Positions 5,739 to 42,132 are shown, numbered from the stretch's first letter. The stretch: 42,132 nucleotides of DNA from Betaproteobacteria bacterium (GCA_039931635.1 JBDTRO010000174.1:1-42132), one strand, 5' to 3'. The notes: generated from the letters alone by a model not told the origin. A program made the numbers and translations.

Positions 5739-5754
5739 TGGCACCCCGCTTGCA
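5739..5754 (+). promoter_or_regulatory. Sigma-54 (-24/-12) promoter
   Basis: TGGCACCCCGCTTGCA has exact GG-N10-GC spacing; followed by RBS AGGAGG and ATG at 5791. Confidence 0.9.
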
Positions 5755-24641: not shown

Positions 24642-24935
24642 TCAGTGGTGCGCTGCGGAGACGGGCAGCAGTTCTGCTACGCCGTACAGACGGGCAATGC
24701 TCGTGAGGCCCTGAGGAAGATTTGCAAATTCGAGGCTGCGATTGTGCTTCCTGGCCTCGCGCAACCAGGCGAGCAGGAGCGCCAGCGCGGACGAATCCAC
24801 CTCGCCGACTTCGCCCAGGTCCACGGTCTGCACGCCCTGCCCGATGGCGGCCGTGCCCTCGGGGAGCACCGCCGCGACGCTGGCAAGCGTCAGGCCGCCG
24901 CTGACGAACATGCGATCGCCGTCGCGCCGGATCAT
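24642..24935 (-). CDS. mlaB: STAS-domain protein MlaB
   Basis: From MIRRDGDR; VDLGEVGEVDSSALALL, ARLYGV; directly after mlaC. Confidence 0.85.
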   Translation of the reverse strand: MIRRDGDRMFVSGGLTLASVAAVLPEGTAAIGQGVQTVDLGEVGEVDSSALALLLAWLREARKHNRSLEFANLPQGLTSIARLYGVAELLPVSAAHH

Positions 24936-25585: not shown

Positions 25586-25586
25586 C

Positions 25587-26468: not shown

Positions 26469-26935
26469 TTGCCGTCCTTGCCCTCAGCCGCCTTGTTGAA
26501 CAAGAACTGGCTGATCAGGTTTTCCAGCACTACGGCCGATTGCGTCAGCCGCAACCGGTCCCCCTGCTTCAACATTACCCCGTCCCCGCCCGCTTCCAGG
26601 CCCACGTACTGCTCGCCGAGCAGGCCAGAGGTCAGGATCTTCGCCGACGTATCGCGCGGAAACCGGTATTGCGCGTCCACCGTGAAGGTGACGATGGCCT
26701 CGTAGCTCTCGTTGTCGAAACTGACCTCCGACACCCGCCCGACGACCACGCCCGCGCTCTTGATCGGCGCGCGCACCTTCAACCCGCCAATGTTAGCAAA
26801 CTTGGCCTGTACCTGATACATCTCGGCGGTCGAAAAAGAGGCCAAATTTCCCACCTTAAGGGCAAGAAACAACAGTCCGGCGAAGCCGGCGGCGACAAAG
26901 GCGCCGACCCAGATGTCGATGGTGGAGCGTTTCAT
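26465..26935 (-). CDS. mlaD: MCE-domain protein MlaD
   Basis: FANIGGLKVRAP, GVVVGRV, TSGLLGEQY, LENLISQFL. Confidence 0.95.
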   Translation of the reverse strand: MKRSTIDIWVGAFVAAGFAGLLFLALKVGNLASFSTAEMYQVQAKFANIGGLKVRAPIKSAGVVVGRVSEVSFDNESYEAIVTFTVDAQYRFPRDTSAKILTSGLLGEQYVGLEAGGDGVMLKQGDRLRLTQSAVVLENLISQFLFNKAAEGKDGK

Positions 26936-27750
26936 TTCGCATTTCCTCCGGTAAACATGAGCGCCGTGAGCGCGAAATCCAGAGCCAGGATGGCCAGCGA
27001 GGAGGTCACCACGGTCCGCGTCGTCGCCGCCGAGACCCCCTCAGCGGTAGGCAGGGCGTCATAGCCCTCGAACACCGCGATCCAGGTCACCGCGACCCCG
27101 AAAACTACGCTCTTGATGACCCCATTCAGGATGTCCTCGCGCACGTCCACGGAGGCCTGCATCTGGGACCAGAACGCCCCCTCGTCGACCCCGATCAGCT
27201 TCACACCGACCAGGTAGCCACCGAAAATCCCCATCGCCGAGAACAACGCCGCCAGCAACGGCATCGAGATCACGCCGGCCCAGAAGCGGGGCGCCACCAC
27301 GCGGGCAATCGGATCCACCGCCATCATTTCCATGGCGGCGATCTGCTCGGTCGCCTTCATGAGGCCGATTTCGGCCGTAATCGCCGAGCCGGCACGGCTG
27401 GCGAACAGCAGCCCGGCGATCACGGGCCCCAATTCACGCACTAGCGAGAGCGCGACGAGCACGCCCAGCGCCTCGCCCGAGCCGTAGCGCTGCAGGGTCT
27501 CGAAGCCCTGCAACCCCAGGACCATGCCGACGAACAGCCCGGAAACCAGGATGATGATCATCGACAGTGCGCCCGCGAAGTAGATCTCGCGGATCGTAAG
27601 CCCGAAACGGCGGAATGCGGTCCCCGAGTGCAGCAGGATCGCTACAAAAAAGCGCGCCGCAAACCCCAGCCGCCAGACCTTCGCGGTCGCGGCATGTCCC
27701 AGGCTCGCGAGCCCGTCGCGCAGCCCGGCAAATAGGGATCTTTCAGCCAT
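26932..27750 (-). CDS. mlaE: Permease MlaE
   Basis: From MAERSLF; LVRELGPV, AEIGLMKATEQ, VVAPRF, TTRTVV. Confidence 0.95.
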   Translation of the reverse strand: MAERSLFAGLRDGLASLGHAATAKVWRLGFAARFFVAILLHSGTAFRRFGLTIREIYFAGALSMIIILVSGLFVGMVLGLQGFETLQRYGSGEALGVLVALSLVRELGPVIAGLLFASRAGSAITAEIGLMKATEQIAAMEMMAVDPIARVVAPRFWAGVISMPLLAALFSAMGIFGGYLVGVKLIGVDEGAFWSQMQASVDVREDILNGVIKSVVFGVAVTWIAVFEGYDALPTAEGVSAATTRTVVTSSLAILALDFALTALMFTGGNAK

Positions 27751-28576
27751 GCGTAGCCACCTGCGCAAGGTCGGCCTCGTAGCCAGGCGCCGGGTAGTGG
27801 AACGGGATTGGGCCGTCGGTTTCGCCGCGCACGAACTGGCTGACGAAAGGTTCCGCGGAACTCCGCAGCGCATCCGGCGTGCCATGCGCCACGATTCGGC
27901 CAGCCGATACGAAATAGACGTAGTCCACGATGCTGAAGCATTCCTCGACGTCGTGGCTGACCACGATCGACGTCTGCCCAAGCGAGTCGTTCAAGGTCCG
28001 GATCAGCCGCGCGATCACGCCAAGCGAGATCGGGTCCAGACCGGTGAATGGCTCGTCGTAGAGCATGAGGCGCGGGTCGAGGGCCACCGCGCGGGCCAGC
28101 GCCACGCGTCGCGCCATCCCGCCCGAGAGCTCGGAAGGCATCATCTGCGCCGCGCCGCGCAATCCGACCGCTTCCAGTTTCATCATGACGAGGTCGTTTA
28201 TGAGATCCGGTGGCAGGTCGGTATGCTCGCGCATCTGGAATGCCACATTGTCAAACACCGTCATGTCGGTAAACAAGGCGCCGAACTGGAACAACATGCC
28301 CATCTTGCGGCGCAATGCAAATATCCCTTCGCTGTCCAGGTCGCTCACCGACTTGCCCAGCACCCGCGTGGCGCCGGCGCTGACCTTGAGCCAGCCGGCA
28401 ATGATTCGCAGCAACGTCGTCTTCCCGCAGCCGGACTGGCCCATGATGCCGACCACGCTGCCGGGCTCGATGCGCAGGCTCACGCCGTGCAGCACCGGGC
28501 GTGCGGCGTCGTAGCCGAACGAAACGTTGTCTATCTCGACGATGGGAAGACCGGCCACGGCAGGAAGGGTACGCAA
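27743..28576 (-). CDS. mlaF: ATPase MlaF
   Basis: GQSGCGKTT, MLFQFGALF, ELSGGMARR, YDEPFTGLDP; exact start uncertain (TTG). Confidence 0.93.
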   Translation of the reverse strand: MRTLPAVAGLPIVEIDNVSFGYDAARPVLHGVSLRIEPGSVVGIMGQSGCGKTTLLRIIAGWLKVSAGATRVLGKSVSDLDSEGIFALRRKMGMLFQFGALFTDMTVFDNVAFQMREHTDLPPDLINDLVMMKLEAVGLRGAAQMMPSELSGGMARRVALARAVALDPRLMLYDEPFTGLDPISLGVIARLIRTLNDSLGQTSIVVSHDVEECFSIVDYVYFVSAGRIVAHGTPDALRSSAEPFVSQFVRGETDGPIPFHYPAPGYEADLAQVATHG

Positions 28577-28605: not shown

Positions 28606-29379
28606 ATGGTTGCCCCCGACATGTTGGCTCCCGCGACCGTCGCCGCTTTCCGCGCCGAGGGGCTCGTCAAGCGCTTTGGCGCACGCCGGGCCCTCGACGG
28701 CGTCAGCATCAGCGTTGCCCCCGGCGCCGCCATGGGCCTGGTCGGCGCCAATGGCGCAGGCAAGACAACCTTCATCAAATGCGCCCTCGACCTGTGCGCT
28801 GCCGACGCCGGCCGCGTCGCGATCTTCGGCCTCGACAGCCGCCAGGCTGCGGCGCGCGCCAGACTTGCCTACGTTCCCGAACGCTTCGTGCCGCCTTACT
28901 ACCTGCTTGGCCGGGAGTTTCTTGCGATGACGCTGGAACTCGCAGGCACCCGGCTTAACCACGCGCGCGCGGTGGCGCTCGCCGCCGAACTCGAGCTCGA
29001 TCCCCAGGCGCTGGAGCGGCCGGTGCGGCAGCTATCCAAGGGCATGACGCAGAAGCTCGGCCTTGCCGCCTGCTTTCTCCTCGAACGGGATCTCTACGTG
29101 CTGGACGAACCGATGAGCGGGCTGGATCCGGCCGGAAGGGTGGCCGTGAAATCGGTGCTGGCCCGGCTCAATCGCGGCGGCAGCGCGCTGCTCTTCACGT
29201 CACACGTGCTCTCCGATGTCGACGAACTTTGTTCGACGATCAGCGTGCTCGATCGCGGCGCACTGCGCTTTCACGGTGCGCCGGCGGAGTTATGCCGGCT
29301 TCATGGCGAAGACAACCTGGAGCGTGCTTTCCTGAGATGCGTTAGATCCGATGCCGACACCCCTGCAATCAGCGCCTGA
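28606..29379 (+). CDS. ABC ATPase, PilH-like, no adjacent permease
   Basis: GANGAGKTT, LSKGMTQK signature, LDEPMSGLD, TSH; start at ATG 28606 or 28621. Confidence 0.85.
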   Translation: MVAPDMLAPATVAAFRAEGLVKRFGARRALDGVSISVAPGAAMGLVGANGAGKTTFIKCALDLCAADAGRVAIFGLDSRQAAARARLAYVPERFVPPYYLLGREFLAMTLELAGTRLNHARAVALAAELELDPQALERPVRQLSKGMTQKLGLAACFLLERDLYVLDEPMSGLDPAGRVAVKSVLARLNRGGSALLFTSHVLSDVDELCSTISVLDRGALRFHGAPAELCRLHGEDNLERAFLRCVRSDADTPAISA

Positions 29380-30784
29380 AGGGCGGCCCCGGCTCCTCAT
29401 CGTCGACGACGATGTCCTGATCGTGGACACGCTGTCGTTCGCGCTCGGCGCCGAGTTCGAGGTGCTGGCCTGCGAATCGCGGCCCCACGCGATCGAGCTG
29501 CTGCGCCAACTGCCCGAGGCGCCCCAGCTCGCACTGGTGGATTTAGGCCTGCCCCCCACGCCGCACACGCCGGACGAGGGTTTCCAGTTGATTGCGGATC
29601 TGCTCGCGCATTCGCCCGGGATGCGCATCTTCGTGCTCTCCGGCCAGAACGATGCGGCGCACGCGCGCCATGCACGGGCGCTGGGAGCGGCAGAATTCAT
29701 CGCCAAGCCCTGCGATCCGGCCGTTCTCAAGAAGATCCTTGCGCGCGCGCTCGCGGTGCGCGACGCCGAATTGACCCATGCCCGCGGCGCGGAGGAACTG
29801 ATCGGGCAAAGCCCGGCGCTGATGAAGCTGAAAAGCCAGCTCGCGCAGTTCGCCGGATCTCCGTTCCCCGTATTGATCGAGGGGGAGTCCGGCAGCGGCA
29901 AGGAACTTGTCGCGCGCAGCCTGCACCGCCTTTCGGCGCGCGCGGACAAACCCTACTATGCGCTCAACTGCGCCGCAATCGCCCCGACCCTGGTCGAACC
30001 GACCCTGTTCGGCTACGCCAAGGGGGCCTTCACCGGCGCCGCCACCAACAGAACGGGCTATTTCGAGGACGCGCGCGACGGCACCCTGTTCCTGGACGAA
30101 ATCGGTGAGCTGCCCCTCGAGATGCAGGCAAAACTGCTGCGGGTGCTTGAGAATGGCGAATACCAGCGTGTCGGCGAGACCAGTAGCCACGTGTCGCGCG
30201 CCCGGGTGATCGCCGCCAGCAACCGCGACCTGCGCCAGGAAGTCCGCAATGGCGCCTTCCGCCCCGACCTCTACCACCGCCTTTCGGTATTCACGCTCGG
30301 CGTGCCGCCGCTGCGGGACATGGAAGCGGATAAGCTGCTGCTGCTCGAGCATTTCCGGCGCTTCTACGCCGAGCAGGCCGCGGTGCAGCCGTTTTCGCTG
30401 GATGAGGGAGCGGAACGGCGCTGGCTTGCCTACCTTTTTCCCGGCAATGTGCGCGAGCTGCGCAACATCGTCATCCGGCTGACCACCAAGCACGCCGGCC
30501 GCAGGCTGCCCGCCGCCGATCTCGAGCCGGAATTCGACCTCGCCTCCGATACGCAGGCACCGGCGTCGGCCGCCGACGGCGACGTGCTCGAGCAGGCGCT
30601 GCGTCACCTGGAGCGCAGCCGCGGTATCAGCCTGGACGAGATGCTGCGATCGCTTGAGCGCGGCTACATCGAAGCCGCGCTCAAGCTCACGCGCGGCAAT
30701 GTCAGCCAGGCCGCCAAGCTGCTGGGGGTAAACCGCACCACGCTCTACAGCCGGATGAACAATCCGGAAGAAAAGGAAAAATAG
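29351..30784 (+). CDS. Sigma-54-dependent response regulator (REC-AAA+-HTH), PrsR/NtrC-like
   Basis: REC (LIVDDD, VDLGLPP, FIAKP), GESGSGKE, GAFTGA, LFLDEIGE, FPGNVREL, HTH (AAKLLGVNRTTLYSR). Confidence 0.92.
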   Translation: MPTPLQSAPEGRPRLLIVDDDVLIVDTLSFALGAEFEVLACESRPHAIELLRQLPEAPQLALVDLGLPPTPHTPDEGFQLIADLLAHSPGMRIFVLSGQNDAAHARHARALGAAEFIAKPCDPAVLKKILARALAVRDAELTHARGAEELIGQSPALMKLKSQLAQFAGSPFPVLIEGESGSGKELVARSLHRLSARADKPYYALNCAAIAPTLVEPTLFGYAKGAFTGAATNRTGYFEDARDGTLFLDEIGELPLEMQAKLLRVLENGEYQRVGETSSHVSRARVIAASNRDLRQEVRNGAFRPDLYHRLSVFTLGVPPLRDMEADKLLLLEHFRRFYAEQAAVQPFSLDEGAERRWLAYLFPGNVRELRNIVIRLTTKHAGRRLPAADLEPEFDLASDTQAPASAADGDVLEQALRHLERSRGISLDEMLRSLERGYIEAALKLTRGNVSQAAKLLGVNRTTLYSRMNNPEEKEK

Positions 30785-30787
30785 CCG

Positions 30788-32248
30788 GTGGCACTTTACC
30801 TTGAGCACTTCGGCCTGAACGAGCCGCCGTTCCGCATCACGCCGCATCCGGATTTCTTTTTCGACGGCGCGGACCGCGGCGCCACGCTCGACGGCCTGCT
30901 GTATGCCATCCTGCACGATGAGGGCATCGTCAAGGTAAGCGGCGAGATCGGCAGCGGCAAGACGACGCTGTGCCGCGTGCTGATGGAGCGCCTGCCGCCA
31001 GAAGTGGAGACAGTATTCCTCGCCAATCCTTCCTATTCGCGCTCCGAGATCCTGCATGCGATCGCCGAGGAACTGGGACGGCCGGCCTCCGCAAGTCCCG
31101 AGGTATCTGCGCTGCGGGACCTGCAGACCAAGCTGATCGAGATCTACGCGAGCGGCCGGCGGGTCGTGGTGATGGTCGACGAAGCGCATGCAATGCCCGA
31201 GGACACCCTGGAGCAGTTACGCCTGCTGTCGAACCTGGAATCAAGCCGCCACAAGTTGCTGCAGATCGTCCTGTTCGGCCAGCCCGAACTGGACTTGGCG
31301 CTCGACAAATCCTCGATGCGCCCGCTCAAGGACCGCATCACGCACAATTTCCGCACCCGGCCGCTGAATGTGACCGAGGCCGGGAGCTATGTCGCGTTCC
31401 GCATGCGCGCGGCGGGCTACAAGGGCCGGGACGTCTTCACGCCGGCGGCAATCTCGGCCATCGCGCGCGCGTCCAGCGGACTGACCCGGCGCATCAACGT
31501 CCTGTGCGACAAATCGCTGCTGGCGGCGTTCGCGGCCAACACGCACGCGGTTACGCCGCGTCAGGTCCGGGCCGCGATCGCCGACTCGGATTTCGGCCCG
31601 GTGCTGGGGAGCAAGCGAAAAAACCCGCGGGCTCTGGCGGCGGCAGCCCTGCTGGCCGTGGGCGGCCTTGCCGGGGCGAGTGTCTTCTACTGGCTAGACC
31701 GCGGCAGGGACCTTCCGGTGGTCTCCACTCCCGTCGCATCGGTGCCGGCAGAAGCGCCGGCCGCCCCGCCGACGCCACCGCTGGCGGAGGCCAAGGCGCC
31801 AGTCCCGGAAGCGGCGGTGCCCGCGCGGGCATCCCTGGTGCAAATGCCCGAGAAACCACCCGCGCCTACCTTTTCCCCGGAGCAGCTGCGCCGGCTCGAG
31901 GCCTACAGCGCCGGCCGCAACCCGCTGCTGCGTGAGCGGATCGCCGCCGCGCGCGAAAAGCTCCAGAGCGAGCCAGACACGAGCTACAGCGTTGAACTTT
32001 TCATCGCCGAGAATAGCGACGCCGCACGCGCCGAACGTTTTCTCGTGCGCGCTCGTGAGCTGGTACCGCTGACGGAGATGTACGTCATTCCGGTTGCCAC
32101 GGGATCGCGTTACTTCCTGCGGGTTTCATACGGCGCTTACGCTGACAAAGAGGCGGCAGCCGAAGCCGCCAAGCGGCTGCCGCCCAAGTACCAGAGGGCG
32201 TTTCAATTCGAGCTGCGCAGTTTCGCTGAACTCCGAGCCGCCATCTGA
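30788..32248 (+). CDS. ExeA/GspA/MshM-family AAA ATPase with TM helix, Pro-rich linker and SPOR-like C-terminus
   Basis: YLEHFGLNEPPF, GEIGSGKTT, VDEAH, LEQLRLLSN, VLFGQPEL, RRINVLCD; C-terminal LRVSYGAYADKEAAAEAAKRLP. Confidence 0.88.
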   Translation: MALYLEHFGLNEPPFRITPHPDFFFDGADRGATLDGLLYAILHDEGIVKVSGEIGSGKTTLCRVLMERLPPEVETVFLANPSYSRSEILHAIAEELGRPASASPEVSALRDLQTKLIEIYASGRRVVVMVDEAHAMPEDTLEQLRLLSNLESSRHKLLQIVLFGQPELDLALDKSSMRPLKDRITHNFRTRPLNVTEAGSYVAFRMRAAGYKGRDVFTPAAISAIARASSGLTRRINVLCDKSLLAAFAANTHAVTPRQVRAAIADSDFGPVLGSKRKNPRALAAAALLAVGGLAGASVFYWLDRGRDLPVVSTPVASVPAEAPAAPPTPPLAEAKAPVPEAAVPARASLVQMPEKPPAPTFSPEQLRRLEAYSAGRNPLLRERIAAAREKLQSEPDTSYSVELFIAENSDAARAERFLVRARELVPLTEMYVIPVATGSRYFLRVSYGAYADKEAAAEAAKRLPPKYQRAFQFELRSFAELRAAI

Positions 32249-32339
32249 AGCTCCTCCCGGACACTCCCGGAAGTCAGAAAACGTCATGGCGACAAATGCT
32301 TAGAAGACATTCCTCAGGAAGTCATGCTATGCTGGCCTG

Positions 32340-34121
32340 ATGGGAGAAAGTTCGCGCGCGGCTAGCGTGGCCAGGGTGCTTGTCGCAGCTACCTTGGTGG
32401 CCGCGCTCGCTGGCTGCGGCCAGGCCCCGCTCAAGCCTTCGCCGGTTCATGTCCGGGCAGACGAACCGCGGCCGGAAGGCTCGATCCCCGCTCCCGTCCA
32501 GGTCGCGCCCGCGCTGCCGCCGCCATCGCCCACGGCCCGGCCGGAAACCTACAGCGTCGTTGTCAATAACGTGCGCGTGCAGGATCTGCTATTCGCCCTG
32601 GCGCGCGATGCGAAGCTGAATGTCGACATCCATCCGGGCGTCACCGGTTCGGTCACGCTGAACGCCATCGACCAGACCTTGCCCCAATTGCTCGGCAGGA
32701 TCTCGAAGCAGGTCGATATGCGTTACGAGATGGACGGTCAGACGCTGTCGGTAATGCGCGACACGCCGTATCTGCGCGTCTACCGCATCGACTACGTGAA
32801 CCTTGCGCGCGACGCCACCAGCCAGGCAAATCTGTCCACCAACGTGAGCGGCGCCGCAGCCACCCCCGGAGGCGGCAGCAGCAGCGGCAGCCAGAATAAT
32901 TCCACGTCTGTCATCAAGACGACGTCAGTCAACAAATTCTGGGAAACCCTGGTCGCCAACCTCAAGGATCTGCTGCGCGAAACCGACAAGATCGTCCCCG
33001 TAAATGCGCCGGTCGCGAGTGCTGCCGCGCCGGCCACACCCGCAGCGCCTCTCGCGCCGGGCGCACCGCCGGCGGCGCCCGTCGCGCCGGCGGCGCAGCC
33101 AGCCGTCGAATTCCGTGAAGCCGCCTCGGTCATTTCGAATCCGGAATCGGGCGTCCTCAGCATCCGCGCCACCTCGCGCCAGCACGAAAAGGTGCAGGAG
33201 TTTCTCGACCAGGTCATGAGCAGCGCCAGGCGCCAGGTGCTAATCGAGGCCACGATCGCCGAGGTGCAGCTGAACAACCAGTACCAGCGCGGCATCGACT
33301 GGACACGCCTGCGCAGCGTCGCCGGTTTCGGTTTCGCGCAGGCCTCTGGCACCACGCCCGCGGGCATCAATACGGGCGCCTTCACGCTCGGCTTCTCGAC
33401 CGGGCCCGGTCTGGGCATCAGCGGCACGCTCAAGCTGCTCGAGTCGTTCGGCGACGTGCGAGTGCTCTCGAGCCCGAAGCTGAGCGTGCTGAACAACCAG
33501 ACCGCCGTGCTCAAGGTGGTGGACAATCTGGTTTACTTCACCGTTGCTGCGACGACCATTCCCGGCACCAACGGCAGCGCGACGATAACCACGTTTTCGA
33601 CCACCGTGAACTCGGTGCCGGTCGGCTTCATCATGAGCGTGGTGCCGCAGATCAGCGAAGGCGATACGGTGACCTTCAACGTCCGGCCGACTATTTCGCG
33701 CAAGCTGAGGGACATCGTTGACCCGAATCCCTCGCTCGCCAATCCCTGCGGCATCCCGGTGCCGGTCGGCGGATGCAACATTCCCGGCATCTCTAGCCTG
33801 ATTCCCGAGATCCAGACGCGCGAGATGGAGTCGGTGATGCGCGTGCAGAGCGGTCAGACCGCCGTGCTGGGCGGCCTGATTCAGGACTCGGTGACCAACG
33901 TTGAGGACACGATACCGGGTGTGCGCACCATTCCCGGGGTCGGCCAGTTGCTCGCGCAGCGCAAGGACGTGAATCAGAAAACGGAACTCGTCATATTTCT
34001 GCGCGCGGTCGTAATTCGCGATTCGAGCATGGATGGCGATTACTCGCGCATGCGCGACCTGCTTCCCGGAAGCGACTTCTTCCTGAAGCCCAATCCGAGC
34101 CGGCAACCGCCCGCGCAGTGA
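32340..34121 (+). CDS. Lipoprotein secretin, MshL-like
   Basis: Lipobox LAGC; STN-like LLFALARDAKLNVDIHPGV; RQVLIEATIAEV, VLSSPKL, VLGGLI, TELVIFL. Confidence 0.9.
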   Translation: MGESSRAASVARVLVAATLVAALAGCGQAPLKPSPVHVRADEPRPEGSIPAPVQVAPALPPPSPTARPETYSVVVNNVRVQDLLFALARDAKLNVDIHPGVTGSVTLNAIDQTLPQLLGRISKQVDMRYEMDGQTLSVMRDTPYLRVYRIDYVNLARDATSQANLSTNVSGAAATPGGGSSSGSQNNSTSVIKTTSVNKFWETLVANLKDLLRETDKIVPVNAPVASAAAPATPAAPLAPGAPPAAPVAPAAQPAVEFREAASVISNPESGVLSIRATSRQHEKVQEFLDQVMSSARRQVLIEATIAEVQLNNQYQRGIDWTRLRSVAGFGFAQASGTTPAGINTGAFTLGFSTGPGLGISGTLKLLESFGDVRVLSSPKLSVLNNQTAVLKVVDNLVYFTVAATTIPGTNGSATITTFSTTVNSVPVGFIMSVVPQISEGDTVTFNVRPTISRKLRDIVDPNPSLANPCGIPVPVGGCNIPGISSLIPEIQTREMESVMRVQSGQTAVLGGLIQDSVTNVEDTIPGVRTIPGVGQLLAQRKDVNQKTELVIFLRAVVIRDSSMDGDYSRMRDLLPGSDFFLKPNPSRQPPAQ

Positions 34122-34122
34122 T

Positions 34123-35550
34123 ATGAGCCTGCTGCTCGAGGCCCTGAAAAAGGCGGAAAAAGCCAAAGAGGACGCACAGCGTCGCGCCCGCGGTGGCGAT
34201 GCGGGCAGCGAGCCTCCCGCGTCGGCGTTCGACGTGGACGCGACCGTCGCCACAGACGGCAAGCACGTCATGAGGCGCGACGAATTGCCGGACATTTCAG
34301 CGCCGCTGGAAATTCTCAGCGACGACCTGCGGCCGGCAGCGCGTGCCAGACCCGCGGCGCCGCTGGAACTTGCGCTCACCGACACATCCTCTCCCGCGCC
34401 GTCGTCCGAACGAAGCGCGGCTCCGCGGCGCGCGACGCCGCGTGCCGGTTCCGGCACCCAGGCCGCCGACCCGGCGAGGTCCGAAAGGGCGGCCGCGCAA
34501 AAGGTGTTCGAGGCAAAATTCCGAGAACCCAACCCGCGCCTGCCCTTCTACATCGCGATGGGCACGCTTGGCGCGTTCGCGGTGGGGACAGTGGCCTATT
34601 TCTGGATCCAGCTGCGCCCCACAGCGCCGCTGGTAAATACCAATCCGGCCCGTTCGGCAAGCGAAAAACCGGTTGAGAGCGGTGCGGAAAAGTCTGCCGC
34701 CGCTACGCCGGCAGCGACGGCAAGCACGGGGCTGGCCGCCATTCCCGGCCTGCCCGGCAGCGCACCTCCGCCGCCGCCCGCTGCGGCGGCAGTTCCGGCA
34801 GGGTCCGCTGTGCCTGCGATGCCTGCGATCGCGACGCCGGCCCCCGCGGTTGCGGCGGCACCGGTCGCGGCGGCAACGCCGATTCGCGCAAAGCCGGCAG
34901 CGATCAGCGCCGGCGCCACGCGCAGCAGGTCCGCCGCAAAGGGCGACGAGAGCGCGTTAAGCGTGAACCGTGGCCGGCCGCAGATTCACCCTCAGGTGAG
35001 CGCGGGATACACCGCCTATCAGGAGGGCGACATGGCAAGAGCACGCGCTGCATACCTGCAGGTGCTGCGCGAGGAGCCGGCCAACCGGGACGCCATGCTG
35101 GGTCTCGCCGCGGTCGAGATGCGGGAGCAGCGCTACGATCTGTCGGATGCGTACTACCAGCGCATCCTGCGCGCGGATCCGCGCGATCCTCACGCGCAGG
35201 CGGGGCTGCTTGCGCTACGCAGCCAGCAGCTGGACCCGGTACTCGTCGAGAGCCGCGTCAAATCCCTGCTCGCTTCCGACCGCGAAGCGAACGTGCTGTA
35301 TTTCACGCTCGGCAACCAGTACGCGCAGCAGGCACGTTGGGCCGAAGCGCAGCAGGCCTATTTCAAGGCCTTCGCCACCGATCCCGACAACGCGGATTAC
35401 GCCTTCAACCTGGCGGTAAGCCTGGACCAGCTGCGCCAGCCGAAGCTGGCGCTGGAGTATTACCGACGCGCGCTGGCGCTGGCCGAAAAGCGCAGCGCCA
35501 ATTTCGCCCTGGAAGTCGCGCGCCTGCGCGTGCAGCAACTCTCCCGCTGA
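34123..35550 (+). CDS. Membrane-anchored TPR protein (MshN-like, ExeB/GspB-like N-terminus)
   Basis: MSLLLEALKKAE start, central TM (FYIAMGTLGAFAVGTVAYFWI), Pro/Ala linker, TPR-like repeats (YFTLGNQY..WAEAQQAYFKA; YAFNLAVSLD). Confidence 0.8.
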   Translation: MSLLLEALKKAEKAKEDAQRRARGGDAGSEPPASAFDVDATVATDGKHVMRRDELPDISAPLEILSDDLRPAARARPAAPLELALTDTSSPAPSSERSAAPRRATPRAGSGTQAADPARSERAAAQKVFEAKFREPNPRLPFYIAMGTLGAFAVGTVAYFWIQLRPTAPLVNTNPARSASEKPVESGAEKSAAATPAATASTGLAAIPGLPGSAPPPPPAAAAVPAGSAVPAMPAIATPAPAVAAAPVAAATPIRAKPAAISAGATRSRSAAKGDESALSVNRGRPQIHPQVSAGYTAYQEGDMARARAAYLQVLREEPANRDAMLGLAAVEMREQRYDLSDAYYQRILRADPRDPHAQAGLLALRSQQLDPVLVESRVKSLLASDREANVLYFTLGNQYAQQARWAEAQQAYFKAFATDPDNADYAFNLAVSLDQLRQPKLALEYYRRALALAEKRSANFALEVARLRVQQLSR

Positions 35551-35621
35551 CACTTTTTTGCAGTGCGGCAACCGAGTGTAACGAGCCTGCCCGTTGGCGC
35601 GCCGGGTATCATTGAGGCTCG

Positions 35622-37331
35622 ATGAATTCGCCCACGAATCCCCAGGCCAAGCGGCACATCGGACAGATCCTGATCGACCAGGGGATCCTCACCGAAGACC
35701 AACTCAGGATCGCCCTGCTCGAGCAGATGAAGTCGCACCTGCCGGTCGGACGCCTGCTGGTGCAGCTCGGGTTCGTGTCGGAAGCAACGCTGCGCGACGC
35801 GCTGTCCGAAAAGCTCGGGCTGCAGTCGGTTGATCTGGTGCACATCATCGTCGACCCCGCGGCGCTGAAGATGCTGCCAAGGGAGCTGGCGCGCCGCTAC
35901 CGCATGTTCCCGGTGGCGCTCGACCGGCAGGGCAAAAAATTCATCGTCGCGCTCGCCGATACCAACAACATTGTCGCGGTCGACCAGCTGCGCGCGCACC
36001 TCAAGGGCGACCTGGAGATCGAACTGCGGCTGGCGGGCGACTCGGAGATCGAGCGCGCGATCGAGCACTATTACGGTCACGAGTTTTCGATCGACGGAAT
36101 TTTGCGCGAGATCGAGACCGGCGAGGTGGATTACACCTCGATCTCGGAAGGCGACGAGTACAGCCAGCCGGTGGTGCGCCTGATTTCGGCGCTGCTCGCC
36201 GACGCGGTCGACCGCAGCGCATCCGACATCCATTTCGAGCCCGAACAGAACTTCCTGCGCATCCGGTACCGCATCGACGGCGTGTTGCGCCAGATCCGCA
36301 GCCTGCACAAGACCTACTGGCCGGCGATGGCGGTGCGCCTGAAAGTGATGGCGAAAATGAACATCGCCGAAACGCGCGCGCCGCAGGACGGCCGCATCTC
36401 GGCGACGATGGCCGGCCGCGTCGTCGACTTCCGCGTCGCGAGCATGCCCACCACGCACGGCGAGAACGTCGTGCTGCGGATCCTCGACCGGCAGAAGGGC
36501 ATCGTGCCGCTCGATCGGCTCAACATGGAAGAGGCGCAGCTCGACCTGCTCAAGCGCATGATCGCGCGGCCCGAGGGCATCATCATGGTCACCGGCCCCA
36601 CCGGCAGCGGCAAGACGACCACCCTCTACTCGATCCTCAATCACATCAATTCCGACGGCGTCAACATCATGACGCTGGAGGATCCGGTCGAGTACCCGAT
36701 GACGCTGATCCGCCAGACTTCGGTGGCGGAGGCGGCGAAACTGGACTTCGCCAACGGCATCCGCTCGATGATGCGCCAGGACCCGGACGTGATTCTGGTG
36801 GGCGAAGTGCGCGACGAGGAGACCGCTGAAATGGCGTTCCGCGCCGCGATGACCGGCCACCAGGTCTATACGACGCTGCATACGAACTCCGCGGTCGGCG
36901 CGATCCCGCGCCTGCTCGACATCGGCATCGTTCCCGACATCATGGCGGGCAACATCATCGGCATTATTGCGCAGCGCCTGGTGAGAAAGCTGTGCCGAAC
37001 CTGCCGCCAGTCCTACGATCCCGACGTCAAGGAAAGGCGCCTGCTGGGCTTGTCTCCGTCTGAGCCGATGGCGCTGTTTCGCTCGGTGGGCTGCGAGCAG
37101 TGCGACTATCAGGGCTATCGCGGACGCGTCGGCATCATGGAAATCCTGAAGATGGATCCCTCGATCGACGAACTGGTTGCGCGCCGCGCCACCGCGCGCG
37201 AGATCCTCACGGCCGCCCGGGCCAAGGGATTCAAGCCGCTGGCCGAAGACGGTATCCGCCTGGTGCGTGGCGGCGTGACGAGCGTGGACGAACTCATGCG
37301 CGTCGCAGACCTGACCGATCGCATGGCGTAG
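35622..37331 (+). CDS. GspE/PilB/MshE-family assembly ATPase
   Basis: MshEN-like N-terminus, ASDIHFEP, RAPQDGR, GPTGSGKTT, LEDPVE, RQDPDVILVGEVRD, TGH..TLH, two CxxC motifs. Confidence 0.95.
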   Translation: MNSPTNPQAKRHIGQILIDQGILTEDQLRIALLEQMKSHLPVGRLLVQLGFVSEATLRDALSEKLGLQSVDLVHIIVDPAALKMLPRELARRYRMFPVALDRQGKKFIVALADTNNIVAVDQLRAHLKGDLEIELRLAGDSEIERAIEHYYGHEFSIDGILREIETGEVDYTSISEGDEYSQPVVRLISALLADAVDRSASDIHFEPEQNFLRIRYRIDGVLRQIRSLHKTYWPAMAVRLKVMAKMNIAETRAPQDGRISATMAGRVVDFRVASMPTTHGENVVLRILDRQKGIVPLDRLNMEEAQLDLLKRMIARPEGIIMVTGPTGSGKTTTLYSILNHINSDGVNIMTLEDPVEYPMTLIRQTSVAEAAKLDFANGIRSMMRQDPDVILVGEVRDEETAEMAFRAAMTGHQVYTTLHTNSAVGAIPRLLDIGIVPDIMAGNIIGIIAQRLVRKLCRTCRQSYDPDVKERRLLGLSPSEPMALFRSVGCEQCDYQGYRGRVGIMEILKMDPSIDELVARRATAREILTAARAKGFKPLAEDGIRLVRGGVTSVDELMRVADLTDRMA

Positions 37332-37380
37332 CGCGGTACACGGGGCGGCAGCCGCCCCCGCGCTTCTCGCACACCCGTTT

Positions 37381-38586
37381 ATGCCTCTGTATACCTACAA
37401 GGCAATCGACGCCGACGGCAAGACGGTGATCGGCCGCGTCGACGCAGGCAACGTGTTCGACCTGGAACAGCGCCTCTCGCGGATGGGGCTGGATCTCATC
37501 TCCGGGGCCCCGACCGCGCAGAAAAGCCGCCTCATCGGCGGCAGCAGCGTCAAGCGCCAGGACCTGATCAATTTCTGCTTCCACCTGGAACAGCTGGCGA
37601 GCGCCGGCGTGCCGATCGTCGAAGGCCTGATTGATCTGCGCGAAAGCGTCGAGAATCTGCGTTTCAGGGAGGTGGTCGGCGGCCTGGTGGAAACCATCGA
37701 GGGCGGCAAGAGCCTGTCGCAGGCGCTTGCCGACTACCCGGAAGTGTTCAGCAAGGTGATGGTCAGCCTGGTGCGTTCGGGCGAGCAGACGGGAAAACTC
37801 TCGGAGGTTCTGAAGAGTCTGGCCGAAACCCTGAAATGGGAGGACGAGCTCGCGGCACAGACCAAGAAGCTCCTCGTGTACCCATTGTTCGTCGGCGGCA
37901 TCGTGACCCTGGTCACGTTCTTCCTGATGATCTATCTGGTCCCGCAGATGGTCGGGTTCATCAGGAACATGGGCCAGGACGTGCCGCTGCAGACGCGGAT
38001 CCTGATTCACGTTTCCAATTTCTTCGTCGGCTACTGGTGGGCCGTCGCCGCGATGCCCTTCGTCATCTGGTACGGCCTCAAGATAGCCGCCAAGACGAAC
38101 CCGGCGGTCGCCTACACCCTGGACGACCTGAAACTGCGGGTGCCGTTCATCGGCCCGATCCTGCGCAAGATCATCCTGTCGCGCTTCGCGTCGAGCTTCG
38201 CGATGATGTACAGCTCCGGGATCACGGTACTGGACGCGATCCGGTCCTCTGAAGAAATCGTCGGCAACCGCCCCCTGGAGAACGCGTTGCGCACCGCCGG
38301 CCAGCAGATCGCCGAGGGCAAGGGCCTTACCGCGGCATTCACCGACGTGGGGCTGTTTCCGGCGCTGGTGATCCGGATGCTGAAAATCGGGGAAAATACG
38401 GGCGCACTCGACAGGGCACTGCTCAATGTCAGCTACTTCTACAACCGCGAGGTGAAGGAAGGCATCGACCGCGTGCAGGCGATGATCGAGCCGGCGATGA
38501 CGATGGTGCTCGGCGCCATTCTCGGCTGGGTGATGCTCTCGGTGCTCGGCCCGGTCTACGATACGATCTCCAAGATGAAGTTCTAG
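37381..38586 (+). CDS. GspF/PilC/MshG-family inner-membrane platform protein
   Basis: MPLYTYKAID, AGVP, GEQTGKL, YP-TM, GENTGALD, IEP-TM. Confidence 0.93.
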   Translation: MPLYTYKAIDADGKTVIGRVDAGNVFDLEQRLSRMGLDLISGAPTAQKSRLIGGSSVKRQDLINFCFHLEQLASAGVPIVEGLIDLRESVENLRFREVVGGLVETIEGGKSLSQALADYPEVFSKVMVSLVRSGEQTGKLSEVLKSLAETLKWEDELAAQTKKLLVYPLFVGGIVTLVTFFLMIYLVPQMVGFIRNMGQDVPLQTRILIHVSNFFVGYWWAVAAMPFVIWYGLKIAAKTNPAVAYTLDDLKLRVPFIGPILRKIILSRFASSFAMMYSSGITVLDAIRSSEEIVGNRPLENALRTAGQQIAEGKGLTAAFTDVGLFPALVIRMLKIGENTGALDRALLNVSYFYNREVKEGIDRVQAMIEPAMTMVLGAILGWVMLSVLGPVYDTISKMKF

Positions 38587-38590
38587 CGCC

Positions 38591-40144
38591 ATGTCCGCCA
38601 AGCTCGTCCTTTATTTCACCGCCACCGAGCACACGCTCTACCGCTGGGTGGGCGGCGCGCTTGAGGCAGTGGCGACGTTCGGCGCCGACGACGAAGGACT
38701 GCAAGCGTTCCGCGTCCATCTGCAGGGGCGCCGCGGGGCGCTCGTTTACGTCCTTGCCGACCTGGCGGGCGAAGATTTCCACGAGGATCAGATTCCCAAC
38801 CTGCGGGGCGGCGACCGGCTGGCGGTCGTGCAGCGCCGGCTCGCAGGCCGCTACCGCGACTCGCGGCTCGCTGCGGCGCTGTCGCTCGGTTATTCGACCG
38901 GCGAGAAGCGCTCCGAGCGCCTGCTGCTCGCCTCGTTTACCAATACGGAACAGTTCACGCCCTGGGTCGATGCGCTGGTGGCCTCGGGCGCGCGGCTCTC
39001 CGGCGTCTATTCCGTTCCGTTGCTCGCGCCGGCGCTCGCTGCGCGGTTGGGCGCCCGCAACGGCCGCATTTTCGTCGTAACGACAAACAGCACCGGCCTG
39101 CGGCAGTGCTTCGTCGACAACGGTTTGCTGCGCTTCGCACGCCTCGAGCGCACCACGGACGTTGAACCGCAAGCGCTCGCGGCGTTCGTGCGCGCAGAAA
39201 CGATGCGGCTAGTGCAGTACCTCTCGACACTCAGGGCCCTGCCGCGCGAAGGCCCGCCGATCCAGGTTCTGGTGGTCGCACCGGCCGCGTTGCGCGCGGC
39301 ACTTGAGCAAGTGCTGGTGTCCGATGCACGCATTACATTCAGGACCATCGCCATCGAAGAGGCGGCGCGCAAGGTCGGCATCAAGCGTCCAGCCGCCGAC
39401 CTGCCCGGCGAGCAGCTCTTCCTGCAGCTTGCGGTCAAGAGCCCGCCCAAGGACCAGTTCGCCCGCCTCGAAGACAGGCGCAGCTTCTTCCTCTGGCGGT
39501 TGCAGCGCGCGATCGTCGCCACAGGCGCCGCCGGATTGCTTGCCTGCACATTGTTCGCCGGGGCACAGTGGATCGACCTGCTCGGCGTCAAGGACCAGGT
39601 TTCAATCCAGCAGCGCGAGGCGCGCGAGGCGACGCAACAATACCAGCGGATCACGGCGTCATTCCCGGTAACGCAAACCACGACCGACAACCTGAAGGCG
39701 ACCGTGGTCGAGTTCACCAAGATCGCGGCGCAATCGTCCTCGCCGGAACCCGCGCTGGTTTACCTGTCGCAGGTGGTGGAGAAATTCCCGCAGATGGAAA
39801 TCGAATCGGTGGTGTGGCGGGTGGGCAAACCCGCCGGCGCGGCAGATAAGGCACTGGCCAAACCGGCAGCGGTGCCCGCGGCCCCCGGGCAAGCGGGCGA
39901 AAACCTGCAAATACTTGAAGTTTCCGGACGGGTAAACGCAACCAGGAGATCCGACTATCGCGCGATAACCGGCCAGGTGCAGCGCTTCGCCGAAGCGCTG
40001 CGCACCGACCCGGCCTGGCGCATCCTGCGCACGCAGCTGCCGTTCGATGTCACATCCGAAGGCACCCTGTCCGGCGACATCGGCGCGGCGGAAGGCACCG
40101 AGGCGCCGCGGTTTTCTGTCACGGTGGGGCGCGAGATCAAATGA
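38591..40144 (+). CDS. PilM-PilN fusion / GspL-like assembly protein
   Basis: Large soluble N-terminal domain, single TM (AIVATGAAGLLACTLFAG), coiled coil, then a PilN-like C-terminal domain; sits right after gspF. Family inferred from architecture and context. Confidence 0.6.
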   Translation: MSAKLVLYFTATEHTLYRWVGGALEAVATFGADDEGLQAFRVHLQGRRGALVYVLADLAGEDFHEDQIPNLRGGDRLAVVQRRLAGRYRDSRLAAALSLGYSTGEKRSERLLLASFTNTEQFTPWVDALVASGARLSGVYSVPLLAPALAARLGARNGRIFVVTTNSTGLRQCFVDNGLLRFARLERTTDVEPQALAAFVRAETMRLVQYLSTLRALPREGPPIQVLVVAPAALRAALEQVLVSDARITFRTIAIEEAARKVGIKRPAADLPGEQLFLQLAVKSPPKDQFARLEDRRSFFLWRLQRAIVATGAAGLLACTLFAGAQWIDLLGVKDQVSIQQREAREATQQYQRITASFPVTQTTTDNLKATVVEFTKIAAQSSSPEPALVYLSQVVEKFPQMEIESVVWRVGKPAGAADKALAKPAAVPAAPGQAGENLQILEVSGRVNATRRSDYRAITGQVQRFAEALRTDPAWRILRTQLPFDVTSEGTLSGDIGAAEGTEAPRFSVTVGREIK

Positions 40145-40749
40145 GCTTCTCCATCGCGGAACTGAAAAAGATCGCGTTGCCGCTGCTGCTGCTGGTCGTG
40201 CTGCTGGGCGCCGGCGCCGGGCTGATCCTTTGGACGCAGGGCGAGCAGCAGGCCGAGGCGCGGCTGCTCGCGGCAGCGCGCGCCGAGCGCAGCCAGGCGC
40301 GCGAACGCCTGACGCGCATCGCGGACGAGGAAAAGGAAGTCAACGACAAGCTCGAGGTGTATCGCAAGCTGAAGAGCCTGCATATTCTCGGCGAAGAACA
40401 GCGCCTCGAGTGGGCCGACGCGATGACCCGCATCCGCACCACGCGAGAACTCCTCGATCTTCGCTACCTGGTGGACCGCCAGCGCCTGCTCGTCGCGGTC
40501 GCGGGCAAGCCGGGGGGCGTGGAGGTCTACGCGAGCGCCATGAAAGTGGATATTGCGCTGCTGCACGAAGGCGATCTGCTCGCATTCCTGCGTGAACTGC
40601 GCGCATCGGGCAATGCCTACTATTCGATCAAACGCTGCGCGATCAACCGGGTGGGTAGCGCGGCGACCGGCACCTCGATCGTGCCGCGCCTGCGCGCGGA
40701 CTGCGAGATCGACCTCATTACCATCATCGACCGGGCGGCCAAGACATGA
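40141..40749 (+). CDS. PilO/GspM/MshJ-like bitopic protein
   Basis: N-terminal TM, coiled coil, LLHEGDLLAFL, Cys pair; ATGA-coupled to both neighbours. Confidence 0.6.
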   Translation: MSFSIAELKKIALPLLLLVVLLGAGAGLILWTQGEQQAEARLLAAARAERSQARERLTRIADEEKEVNDKLEVYRKLKSLHILGEEQRLEWADAMTRIRTTRELLDLRYLVDRQRLLVAVAGKPGGVEVYASAMKVDIALLHEGDLLAFLRELRASGNAYYSIKRCAINRVGSAATGTSIVPRLRADCEIDLITIIDRAAKT

Positions 40750-41213
40750 AGCGGATCTTCGTGATGGCAGCAAGCGGCGCGCTGGTCGCTGCGGGCATTT
40801 CGCTGGCCGGCGTGGCGAACGCGCAGGCGTTGGGACGCCTGTTCTTCACCCCGGAGCAGCGCGCGGCGCTCGATGCGCGCCGCAAAGCACGCGTGCCGGA
40901 CAAGCCGGCCGCGACCCCCGTTGCCGAATCGCCGGTTACCCGCGTCAACGGCGCGGTGCGGCGCGGCGATGGAAAGTCGACCGTCTGGGTCAATGGCGAA
41001 ATGATCCCGGAAGACACGCGGGGCGACGGCGCGCGGGTGACGCGGCGCGGTCCGAATCCGGGCCGCGTCTCCATACCAGCCGGCGAAGGCCCGCAGCGGT
41101 ACGACCTGCGCGTCGGGGAATCGCTCGATCGCGGCAGCGGTGAAGTGCGCGACGTGGTCGGCGAGGGCGAGATTCGGATCGGGCCTCGCCGCACCGTGCC
41201 GGGGAAAAAATGA
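40746..41213 (+). CDS. Small exported protein, MshK/PilP/GspC-HR-like
   Basis: Signal peptide (ANA-QA), LGRLFFTPEQRAALD, beta-rich VNG..VWVNG..LRVGES; occupies the slot of MshK/PilP. Confidence 0.55.
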   Translation: MKRIFVMAASGALVAAGISLAGVANAQALGRLFFTPEQRAALDARRKARVPDKPAATPVAESPVTRVNGAVRRGDGKSTVWVNGEMIPEDTRGDGARVTRRGPNPGRVSIPAGEGPQRYDLRVGESLDRGSGEVRDVVGEGEIRIGPRRTVPGKK

Positions 41214-42132
41214 AGCGGCTGGGTTCACGACGCCAGCAAGGCATCGCCATGATCGCGCTCGTGGCGATCCTGGCGCTCGTCGGATCGACGCTGCTCGTCA
41301 AGCAGCTGAACTCGGCGAGCGCCGGATTTTCCGCGGTCAGGAAAAGTCGCAACGCCGAAATTTTGCTGCGGGCCAAGCAGGCGCTGATCGGCTACGTGGC
41401 CGCGCAGGCGGTGAAGACAGGGGAAAACAATCCGGGCGCCATGCCCTGCCCGGAGAATCCCGGTGACTTCGACAGCACCACCGGAAACGACGGCAAGGTG
41501 GGAACCAGCTGCGGGGTCACGACCGTGGGGCGCTTCCCCTGGCGCACGCTGGGCGTGGACCAACTCGTCGATGCATCCGGCGAACCCCTGTGGTACGTGG
41601 TGTCCCCAGGCTGGGGGGTCGCTTCCGGCTCGAACACCTCGATCAACTCCAACTCCGTCGGACGGCTTACGGTTGACGGCACGGCAACAACTCCAATTGC
41701 GTCGCCCGGCAAAGTCAACTACACCGGCCACGGATTTGCAGTCGGTGACACGGTTTCATTCGCGACCGGCGGAGCGCTGCCGACCGGCATCACGGCAGGC
41801 GCAATGTATTACGTCATATCAGCGGGATTGACGTCTGATTTGTTCGAGATCTCCGCCACGTCGGGCGGAGCGGCAATCGACTTCACAGGCACGACCTCCG
41901 GTCCCCACAATGTTTATCGGAACCAGTCCGGCGTGGCGAAAAGCGTAGTCGCTCTCATCATCGCGCCGGGGCCCGCATTCACGGTGGCCGCGGCTACCGG
42001 CTGCACGGCCCGGACACAGGCGCGCTCGAACACCGGCACCCCCGACTGGCGCAACTACCTCGAGTGCGAGAACGCAACTTCGCCCGCGGACGGCATCTTC
42101 GTGACAACCGGCCCGAGTGGCTCGTTCAACGA
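41210..42132 (+). CDS. Large pilin-like protein (PilX/GspK-type class III signal peptide), truncated by the window end
   Basis: Not in the ORF track because there is no stop in the window. Hand translation MKRLGSRRQQG|IAMIALVAILALVGSTLLV..AKQALIGY..GAMPCPE..GRFPWRTLG..DASGEPLWYVVS..VALIIAPG..NYLECEN. No Glu at +5; ATGA overlap with the upstream gene. Confidence 0.8.
   Translation, partial: MKRLGSRRQQGIAMIALVAILALVGSTLLVKQLNSASAGFSAVRKSRNAEILLRAKQALIGYVAAQAVKTGENNPGAMPCPENPGDFDSTTGNDGKVGTSCGVTTVGRFPWRTLGVDQLVDASGEPLWYVVSPGWGVASGSNTSINSNSVGRLTVDGTATTPIASPGKVNYTGHGFAVGDTVSFATGGALPTGITAGAMYYVISAGLTSDLFEISATSGGAAIDFTGTTSGPHNVYRNQSGVAKSVVALIIAPGPAFTVAAATGCTARTQARSNTGTPDWRNYLECENATSPADGIFVTTGPSGSFN

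Follow-up and report, generated by a model that had tools for sequence, protein, structure and literature searches.

The DNA analysed here, a 42,132-nt stretch from a betaproteobacterium (hereafter the window), is an entire contig (C174) of a 3.09-Mb genome, which was assembled into 334 contigs and is 89.8% complete. The region from position 28606 to the contig end and its continuation on two further contigs probably hold all the genes of a type IV pilus machine that belongs to a lineage of its own, related to the mannose-sensitive haemagglutinin (MSHA or MSH) pilus. The genes present, their conservation and the separate clade that they form were observed directly; to these may be added the predicted folds of a 517-aa scaffold protein and of the N-terminal region of a giant pilin-like protein. 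The locus is a widespread variant of the MSH kind, employing the parts and the logic of known pili, and not a new kind of machine.

Gene set and core components of the locus

The calling of open reading frames (ORFs), combined with Pfam and NCBIfam searches, revealed 11 co-oriented genes on the plus strand between 28606 and the contig end, mostly overlapping or closely spaced, as had been described in the initial annotation of this DNA. Adjacent ORFs overlap by 29, 4, 4 and 4 nt or are separated by six gaps of 1 to 91 nt. The locus runs on from C174 to contig C137 and from there to C253, both joins being exact 55-nt overlaps, and amounts to 16 genes across the three contigs, in an order that agrees with that of relatives having unbroken contigs. 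C137 contains the remainder of the giant protein gene, a gene for a 287-aa prepilin, a convergent histidine kinase gene and an ABC-2 permease gene. On C253, genes for an accessory protein and for a 228-aa prepilin are followed by a KefB-type antiporter gene, which lies on the opposite strand, and by an SIS+CBS gene. These downstream genes, whose retrieval had been recommended, complete the locus. The initial annotation had noted that neither a major pilin nor a prepilin peptidase was visible in a truncated locus; the first absence disappeared once the prepilins were located on C137 and C253, and the second persisted, as no peptidase is encoded in the locus.

The third gene encodes an MshM/ExeA-like AAA+ ATPase (30788..32248, plus strand) composed of an AAA_22 domain (E 2.7e-27), a transmembrane (TM) helix at residues 281-303 and a C-terminal SPOR (peptidoglycan-binding) domain, which scored 22 bits against a cut-off of 21. 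Over ~268 aa this protein is 35-44% identical to MshM of 18 canonical-order loci (described below). It is followed by a secretin lipoprotein of the MshL type, the predicted outer-membrane channel (32340..34121, plus strand; PF00263, 110 bits), with an LAGC lipobox at the N-terminus. Among the NCBIfam secretin models, MshL (TIGR02519) gave by far the highest score (234.6 bits, cut-off 250.2), in comparison to 136.8 bits for GspD (cut-off 351.35) and 81.5 bits for PilQ (cut-off 284.35), and the equivalent secretins from two genomes of other families, G175 and G097, exceeded the TIGR02519 cut-off with 274.8 and 257.4 bits, respectively. The MshN position is occupied by a tetratricopeptide repeat (TPR) protein (34123..35550, plus strand) matching TPR_16, TPR_2 and related Pfam families, with a TM helix predicted at residues 144-162 and repeats at residues 290-457; its conservation across the taxonomic order is limited to the C-terminal half.

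The extension ATPase (35622..37331, plus strand; T2SSE, 426 bits) has an N-terminal domain of the MshEN type (PF05157, 49.4 bits). It passes the NF053729 model of the cyclic di-GMP (c-di-GMP) motif, with a score of 59.1 against a cut-off of 38, so that c-di-GMP binding is predicted, and it remains under the cut-offs of both the PilB (519.7, below 675.65) and the GspE model (516.8, below 630.25). When the N-domain was compared with structures in the PDB, MshE of Vibrio cholerae (5htl) ranked sixth (E 1.3e-14, 57.7 bits), behind PilF and PilB, whereas for the N-domains of two canonical-order ATPases 5htl ranked first, with 143 and 112 bits. The next gene encodes an inner-membrane platform protein of the GspF/PilC/MshG family (37381..38586, plus strand; T2SSF, 174 bits), which scored 294 on the GspF model (cut-off 424) and is 25-34% identical to the platforms of canonical loci.

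The last four proteins encoded in the window (517, 202, 155 and at least 307 aa) gave no family match in Pfam or NCBIfam at E 0.01, the one exception being a sub-threshold hit. For the 517-aa protein (38591..40144, plus strand) an AlphaFold model was obtained with a 17-row alignment and a predicted local distance difference test score (pLDDT) of 80.7. The modelled fold consists of an actin-like cytoplasmic domain, a long helix comprising the TM segment and a coiled coil, and a small periplasmic alpha/beta domain. Foldseek matched the model to PilM (5eoy, E 1.9e-12), the PilM-PilN complex (2ych) and the cytoplasmic domains of EpsL (1yf5, E 1.2e-9) and GspL (4pht). We interpret the predicted structure as that of a PilM/PilN fusion, an analogue of GspL and MshI, which accounts for its GspL-like appearance; the earlier view of this gene as a GspL-like fused PilM/N thus found support in the model. 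A tblastn search with this protein against a plasmid collection gave no match.

The bitopic 202-aa protein (40141..40749, plus strand) has an N-terminal TM helix and was modelled in complex with residues 295-517 of the scaffold, giving a score of 0.71, while the best of three controls reached 0.09. A score of 0.71 is attained by 116 of 157 solved complexes and by two of 215 mismatched pairs. The runs shared at least 95% of contacts, with a pLDDT of at least 79 for the partner. Complexes of PilN with PilO and of GspL with GspM have already been solved, so the model indicates a likeness and does not constitute proof. The 202-aa protein is probably, according to this model, a partner of the scaffold of the PilO/GspM type; the Atlas feature neighbours of its family include GspM/PilO clusters at 0.94, which serves as a lead only, and its profile gave a single match among PDB sequences, at E 0.45. 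The 155-aa protein (40746..41213, plus strand) has an N-terminus resembling a signal peptide, occupies the MshK/GspB/PilP position and contains the conserved motifs GRLFFTP..R and TVW.NG.

Relation to canonical MSH loci and distribution of the system

MshL (TIGR02519) was detected over the cut-off in 117 of 300 genomes of a class-wide sample. Twenty of the best MshL loci were fetched; mshL is followed by mshM in 18 of them, and two have the order found at the locus described here. mshE and mshG follow in 12 of the 18, and the remaining six show no match to either within 20 kb. The canonical locus L155 starts with PilM_2, a small ORF, T2SSM-like and T2SSB-like genes, the secretin gene and an AAA_22 gene (314 aa, no SPOR), and continues with TPR, T2SSE+MshEN and T2SSF genes and then several genes for short N_methyl pilins, which corresponds to the gene order of Vibrio MSHA. 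Elsewhere in the class, the complete genome G175 has a locus of this type and, ~13 kb away on the same strand, an MSH locus of canonical order (C1, 82104-99707); the two secretins lie at 82104 and 95091, the two ATPases at 84802 and 98553. The locus L157 (G288:C4) is an aberrant MSH-like one, in which a prepilin gene directly precedes the secretin gene and a 370-aa ORF lies between the secretin and MshM genes.

The genome under study also holds a canonical MSH set, with I-J-L-M on C34 and E-G on C307, so that, judging from the gene content, two MSH-type machines are predicted to coexist in it. A true GspE over the cut-off is encoded on C10, beside GspD and GspF, and a pilMNOPQ-like row on C238 and pilC-pilD on C203 were recognised by size and order only. 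Since the canonical MSH set and the true GspE are present elsewhere in the genome, the locus represents neither an MSH replacement nor a type II secretion system (T2SS). Further T2SSE ATPases were found on contigs C288/C76 of this genome (G000): one is TfpB-like, cut by a contig end and scored 649.8 bits on NF053534, and the other is a 789-aa protein with a long N-terminal extension and a very long branch.

The phylogeny of ATPases was reconstructed with a quick IQ-TREE run on 48 rows, in which GspE, PilB and TfpB were labelled by NCBIfam cut-offs and canonical MSH rows were defined by the locus gene order L-M-N-E-G, not by named full-length MshE references. The ATPases of the locus type described here formed one clade (15/15 rows; 100 in the Shimodaira-Hasegawa-like approximate likelihood ratio test, SH-aLRT) with a stem of 0.9. 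A second clade of 14 rows, also with a support of 100, comprised 11 of the 12 canonical-order ATPases and three others, including the one from C307; the canonical-order ATPase of G288 falls outside these two clades, on a long branch. GspE (SH-aLRT 100), PilB and TfpB were each placed apart from the locus-type clade. The split that joins the locus-type and canonical clades against PilB, GspE and TfpB has a support of 84 and a length of 0.013, which makes the two clades sisters only tentatively. Similarly, in the secretin tree the locus type (14/14, SH-aLRT 99, stem 1.43) and the canonical type (13/13, 99) are separated, both lying far from the GspD and PilQ of the genome, which were the only two outgroup rows.

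These analyses bear on several claims of the initial annotation. The phylogenies it had called for were run for the ATPase and the secretin and place the locus type in clades of its own, with the reference rows assigned by gene order or score cut-off. The proposal of a distinct type IV filament subtype agrees with the separation of both clades from canonical MSH, and of the ATPase also from GspE, PilB and TfpB. The gene order indeed differs from the I-J-K-L-M-N-E-G of the canonical locus, and the scaffold proteins match no described family. The designation of the locus as an MSH/T2SS hybrid found no support; no T2SS-specific part (GspC, GspH/I/J or a GspE-type N-domain) was found, and the resemblance to GspL reflects the PilM-PilN fusion.

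Compared with the MSHA pili of V. cholerae, Shewanella and Pseudoalteromonas, the locus shares the MshL-type secretin, the MshM-like AAA+ ATPase, the TPR protein, the extension ATPase with an MshEN c-di-GMP domain and the GspF/PilC-type platform, as well as the arrangement in a single locus lacking a prepilin peptidase and a retraction ATPase. It differs in the order of the genes (M-L-N-E-G-I-J-K instead of I-J-K-L-M-N-E-G), in the fusion of PilM-like and PilN-like parts in one protein, in the additional TM helix and SPOR domain of MshM, in the proteins at the J and K positions, whose profiles show no significant similarity to the canonical ones, in a pilin set consisting of two large prepilins and an E5-less protein of 580-757 aa, and in the two-component pair and ABC transporter added in Burkholderiales. 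The similarity to T2SSs with ExeA/ExeB (GspA/GspB) lies in the GspL-like fused cytoplasmic/periplasmic scaffold, the large GspK-like E5-less pilin and the putatively ExeA-like AAA+/TM/peptidoglycan-binding protein; unlike them, the locus has no GspC, H, I or J, its secretin is of the MshL and not the GspD type, its ATPase bears an MshEN domain and falls outside the GspE clade, its subunit is much larger, and the true T2SS is located elsewhere in the genome. Type IVa pili are distinguished by their own PilB clade, outside which the ATPase falls, and the PilB and PilQ models both scored under cut-off here.

The order of genes encoding the ABC ATPase, regulator, M, L, N, E, G, the 517-, 202- and 155-aa proteins, giant protein, prepilin, kinase and permease was found in all four further genomes of the genus and in eight genomes fetched from other families of the order, with GC contents of 51-68% overall, and because of this recurrence the gene set cannot be attributed to chance. 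G175 and G097, from other families of the class, retain the core order M/L-N-E-G-517-202-155-giant-prepilin, with no matches to the ABC, regulator, kinase or permease genes. Comparison of the loci therefore points to a core machine of 11 genes, supplemented, so far only in Burkholderiales, by the two-component pair and the ABC transporter. The system is conserved in 29 of 41 relatives. A profile of the scaffold protein detected it in 177 of 301 sampled genomes of the order (82/144 genera) at E<=1e-10 and in 57 of 300 sampled genomes of the class (50/265 genera) at E<=1e-30. Among 1.84 billion representatives clustered at 50% identity, 3270, 2687 and 1525 scaffold clusters were obtained at E<=1e-3, 1e-10 and 1e-30, respectively. 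The samples include unpublished genomes (G155, G300, G310 and G077 in the MshL sample, G350 in the order sample, G310 and G077 in the class sample), and G350, G310 and G077 are among the scaffold positives, so the prevalence figures depend on them to a small extent.

The scaffold family thus marks the machine in about three fifths of the sampled Burkholderiales and one fifth of the sampled Gammaproteobacteria (in the GTDB sense). The best 80 of 93 relative loci come, with the exception of one record, from uncultured metagenome-assembled genomes, mostly labelled Burkholderiales or Betaproteobacteria. Named carriers of the scaffold family are Chitinibacter, Deefgea, Gallionella and Thiogranum, in which the protein is called 'hypothetical protein' or 'Uncharacterized protein'; the lone exception among the names given by the sources is a UniRef entry starting 'GspL cytoplasmic a...'. 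Proteobacteria of soil and water very commonly carry this lineage; among the carriers are oxidisers of iron and sulfur as well as uncultured lineages abundant in soil. Three core proteins of the machine, as well as the tip protein, match no Pfam or NCBIfam model. Its characterisation would fill a gap in the catalogue of type IV filaments, allow better annotation and MacSyFinder-type models, and could explain the surface attachment or biofilm behaviour of environmentally important bacteria.

In the MSH model of TFF-SF (Denise et al. 2019, PMC6668835), mshA, E, G, L and M are mandatory, with at least three mandatory genes and four genes in total, and MSH systems are described as single loci without a prepilin peptidase. 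Emerson et al. (2013, PMC3770913) stated that, compared with Vibrio and Pseudoalteromonas, the MSH clusters of the iron-oxidising Betaproteobacteria Sideroxydans ES-1 and Gallionella ES-2 show 'a significant gene rearrangement', with the data not shown and the function given as unknown; these rearranged clusters are probably the system described here. For Gallionellaceae metagenome-assembled genomes, MSHA clusters are merely listed (PMC10734482). Full-text literature searches yielded only the remark on rearranged MSH clusters and no functional study of this variant, in line with the initial annotation, which knew of no experimental characterisation. Its further assessment of the locus as the best candidate for an undescribed system in this DNA was overstated, since the locus is a very common branch of a known kind, probably noted in passing in 2013 (PMC3770913).

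Pilins and predicted locus-encoded regulation

The last gene of the window encodes the first 307 aa of the giant pilin-like protein (41210..42130, plus strand, open at the contig end), the rest of which is encoded on C137; joined through the 55-nt overlap, the protein has ~757 aa overall. Its leader has an invariant G at position -1 and no E5, and the GspK leader likewise lacks E5. Homology to the 287-aa prepilin of the locus extends over the first ~240 aa (BLASTP E 1e-6). In structural alignments, the modelled N-terminal part resembled pilin folds with middling Z scores (EpsG 6.1, root-mean-square deviation 2.4 A over 89 residues; PilE 5.4; PulG 5.2), and residues 320-462 were predicted to form an Ig-like sandwich (Z 6-7.6), which is a common fold. 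A Foldseek search of the PDB with the model of the giant protein gave nothing at E<=0.001.

The 287-aa prepilin contains the motif GFSLVEL. The 228-aa prepilin (KGFTLVEIAIVLVIIGLLLGGILKGQ) contains KGFTLVEIAIV, scored 27 bits on TIGR02532 against a cut-off of 16.3, and would have ~218 aa in its mature form, the GspG model having a length of 134. The weak best matches of the N-termini of both prepilins were GspH and GspG (21.9 and 26.7 bits, with cut-offs of 80 and over). A single PF01478 prepilin peptidase match, on C203, was found in the whole 89.8%-complete genome.

The locus is headed by a gene for a 257-aa ABC-type ATPase (28606..29379, plus strand; PF00005, E 1.2e-19), for which the ATG at 28606 was confirmed. 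Its best NCBIfam matches are of the DrrA/GldA type, all well under the cut-offs, and its likely permease partner is the ABC-2 permease encoded at the opposite end of the locus, on C137. The second gene encodes a sigma-54-dependent response regulator of the PilR/NtrC-like type (29351..30784, plus strand) with Response_reg, Sigma54_activat (E 5.6e-64) and HTH_8 domains, which scored 357 bits on NtrC and 350 bits on PrsR, both under the cut-off. The convergent histidine kinase gene on C137, at the other end of the locus from the regulator gene, encodes a protein with 7-8 predicted TM helices whose best NCBIfam match, PrsK, reached 63 bits and stayed under the cut-off. The putative accessory protein encoded on C253 is mostly helical.

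A sigma-54-type site, TGGTACGCCGATTGCG, is located 42 nt upstream of the ATG of the 228-aa prepilin gene (L197:812-827), in an AT-rich spacer of 138 nt. A similar site lies 76-99 nt upstream of the G-1 codon in all six Burkholderiales loci for which the 228-aa pilin gene was within the fetched DNA (the locus itself, G014, G038, G027, G034 and G030), which are kin and not independent samples. No such site was found in front of the 287-aa prepilin gene, whose ATG overlaps the preceding stop and leaves no intergenic DNA. Across the window, the sigma-54 pattern search at up to two mismatches gave 12 matches versus 19.7 expected. Another sigma-54-like site, GGGCTCGGTGCTTGCA, is located in the stretch that separates the start of the kinase gene from the ABC-2 permease gene (L022, G000:C137, 3976-3991); it recurs only in the close relative G014 and not in other families, and was not relied on as a permease promoter.

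In type IVa pili of Pseudomonas aeruginosa, expression of pilA is controlled by PilS-PilR. The predicted circuit of the locus is similar in its multi-TM kinase, its NtrC-type sigma-54 regulator and its sigma-54-type promoter directly before a pilin gene, and the upstream site fits PilS/PilR-like control of the gene for the 228-aa subunit. It differs from PilS-PilR in that kinase and regulator genes are placed at opposite ends of the locus, and in its best NCBIfam matches (PrsK, NtrC/PrsR), all under cut-off.

The ABC ATPase and regulator genes are at the front of 9 of 12 related loci of the order and were not found in G031 and G029; the contig of G030 stops at mshM. Kinase and permease matches were obtained in eight and nine related loci, respectively. 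The ABC ATPase was also considered as an unrelated neighbour, and this possibility was rejected for Burkholderiales, as the ATPase and permease flank the machine in several families; it is placed outside the core because G175 and G097 are without it. The description of the system as having its own regulator and ABC ATPase is consequently valid for Burkholderiales loci, and neither gene was found next to this machine in two other gammaproteobacterial families. No kinase gene separates the prepilin and ABC-2 permease genes in G031 (L028, G031:C52, 14767-16352), where the latter overlaps the end of the former by 4 nt; this arrangement suggests that co-translation of the permease with the pilins is possible.

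Proposed mechanism, alternatives and neighbouring genes

For a pilus machine of the MSH-related lineage, the following mode of action may be proposed. Binding of c-di-GMP would switch on the MshEN-bearing ATPase, which together with the GspF/PilC-type platform would polymerise the prepilins, after their processing by the single PilD of the genome, encoded elsewhere. The fused PilM/PilN protein, its 202-aa PilO/GspM-like partner and the 155-aa protein in the MshK position may couple this inner-membrane motor to the MshL-type secretin, with the ExeA-like AAA+/SPOR protein and the TPR protein aiding the insertion of the secretin through the peptidoglycan. Priming and capping of the filament would fall to the giant E5-less pilin-like protein together with the 287-aa prepilin. 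The 228-aa prepilin encoded on C253 could be the major subunit, expressed from its own sigma-54 promoter under the PilS/PilR-like kinase and regulator of the locus. The product would most likely be an adhesive, biofilm-related pilus.

Several observations weigh against this interpretation. The labels 'PilO-like' and 'MshK-like', given to two proteins in the initial annotation, agree with their positions and find little support in sequence profiles: comparison of the 202-aa family with canonical MshJ gave an hhalign probability of 3.9%, which is not significant, and that of the 155-aa family with canonical MshK 22% (E 9.4e-4), over an ING-type strand motif, with no homology established. The site TGGTACGCCGATTGCG deviates from the strict sigma-54 consensus by two mismatches, and no such site was found before the pilin gene in G175, the one non-Burkholderiales locus examined. 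The plus strand of 28606-42132 contains no sigma-54 site at two or fewer mismatches, which leaves the control of the machine genes unaccounted for. The locus is without a retraction ATPase, and we only infer that the 228-aa protein is the 'major' pilin. Moreover, three of the components would suit a secretion pseudopilus as well: the giant pilin lacking E5, the GspL-like fused scaffold and the ExeA-like protein.

The last point leads to the alternative of a dedicated T2SS-like machine, in which a short pseudopilus of the 228-aa GspG-like subunit with the giant GspK-like protein as a cap pushes one or a few substrates through the secretin. The Foldseek matches of the scaffold to EpsL and GspL, the GspK-style leader of the giant protein, the GspF model as the top platform match and the weak best matches of both prepilin N-termini to GspH and GspG are all in its favour, as is the MshM-like protein, which has the AAA+/TM/peptidoglycan-binding architecture of ExeA. 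We nevertheless consider a secretion machine unlikely, as no locus protein matched the GspC, GspH, GspI or GspJ families, the secretin scored far higher on MshL than on GspD, the ATPase has an MshEN domain and is excluded from the well-supported GspE clade, a bona fide GspE accompanies GspD and GspF on C10, and the mature subunit greatly exceeds GspG in length. Two-component control through sigma-54 that is specific for a pilin gene is typical of pili and was likewise counted against it. It is even harder to accept the locus as a usual representative of the characterised MSHA family that differs only in a reshuffling of its genes. In favour of this reading, the secretin scored highest on the MshL model, whose cut-off its G175 and G097 equivalents pass; the MshM-like ATPase, TPR protein and MshEN ATPase are all present, and the locus is a single one without a prepilin peptidase, as are the MSH systems of Denise et al. 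(PMC6668835). Such a reading is at odds with the long-stemmed clades of the ATPase and the secretin, apart from the canonical-order clade, with the position of 5htl, first for two canonical-order ATPases and sixth here, with the separate canonical set on C34 and C307 of the same genome, and with the pilin content, as L155 encodes several short N_methyl pilins and this locus two large prepilins and the giant E5-less one.

A pilus related to MSHA remains the preferred reading. A bolder version of it would rank the locus as a separate filament lineage alongside MSH, T2SS and type IVa pili, with scaffold proteins of its own (the fused PilM/PilN with two unrecognised partner proteins) and a tip protein of the tandem-pilin type, with a betaproteobacterial ABC exporter functionally coupled to the pilus, for example by delivering or modifying a pilus-associated component, and with an output set jointly by c-di-GMP and the sigma-54 two-component switch. 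We regard this version as conceivable, though rather doubtful.

Apart from the pilus locus, the window contains an mlaF-E-D-A-C lipid-asymmetry operon on the minus strand (24932-28576), which diverges from it, with only ~30 nt between the mlaF ORF start and the ATG of the ABC ATPase gene. Farther upstream, a gene for a PAS/sigma-54 activator (4206-5627, plus strand) is followed by a perfect TGGCAC-N5-TTGCA site at 5739-5754 and then by a gene for a Peripla_BP_6 solute-binding protein (5791-6978, plus strand); the segment 4206-6978 looks like a self-contained sigma-54 regulated uptake operon.

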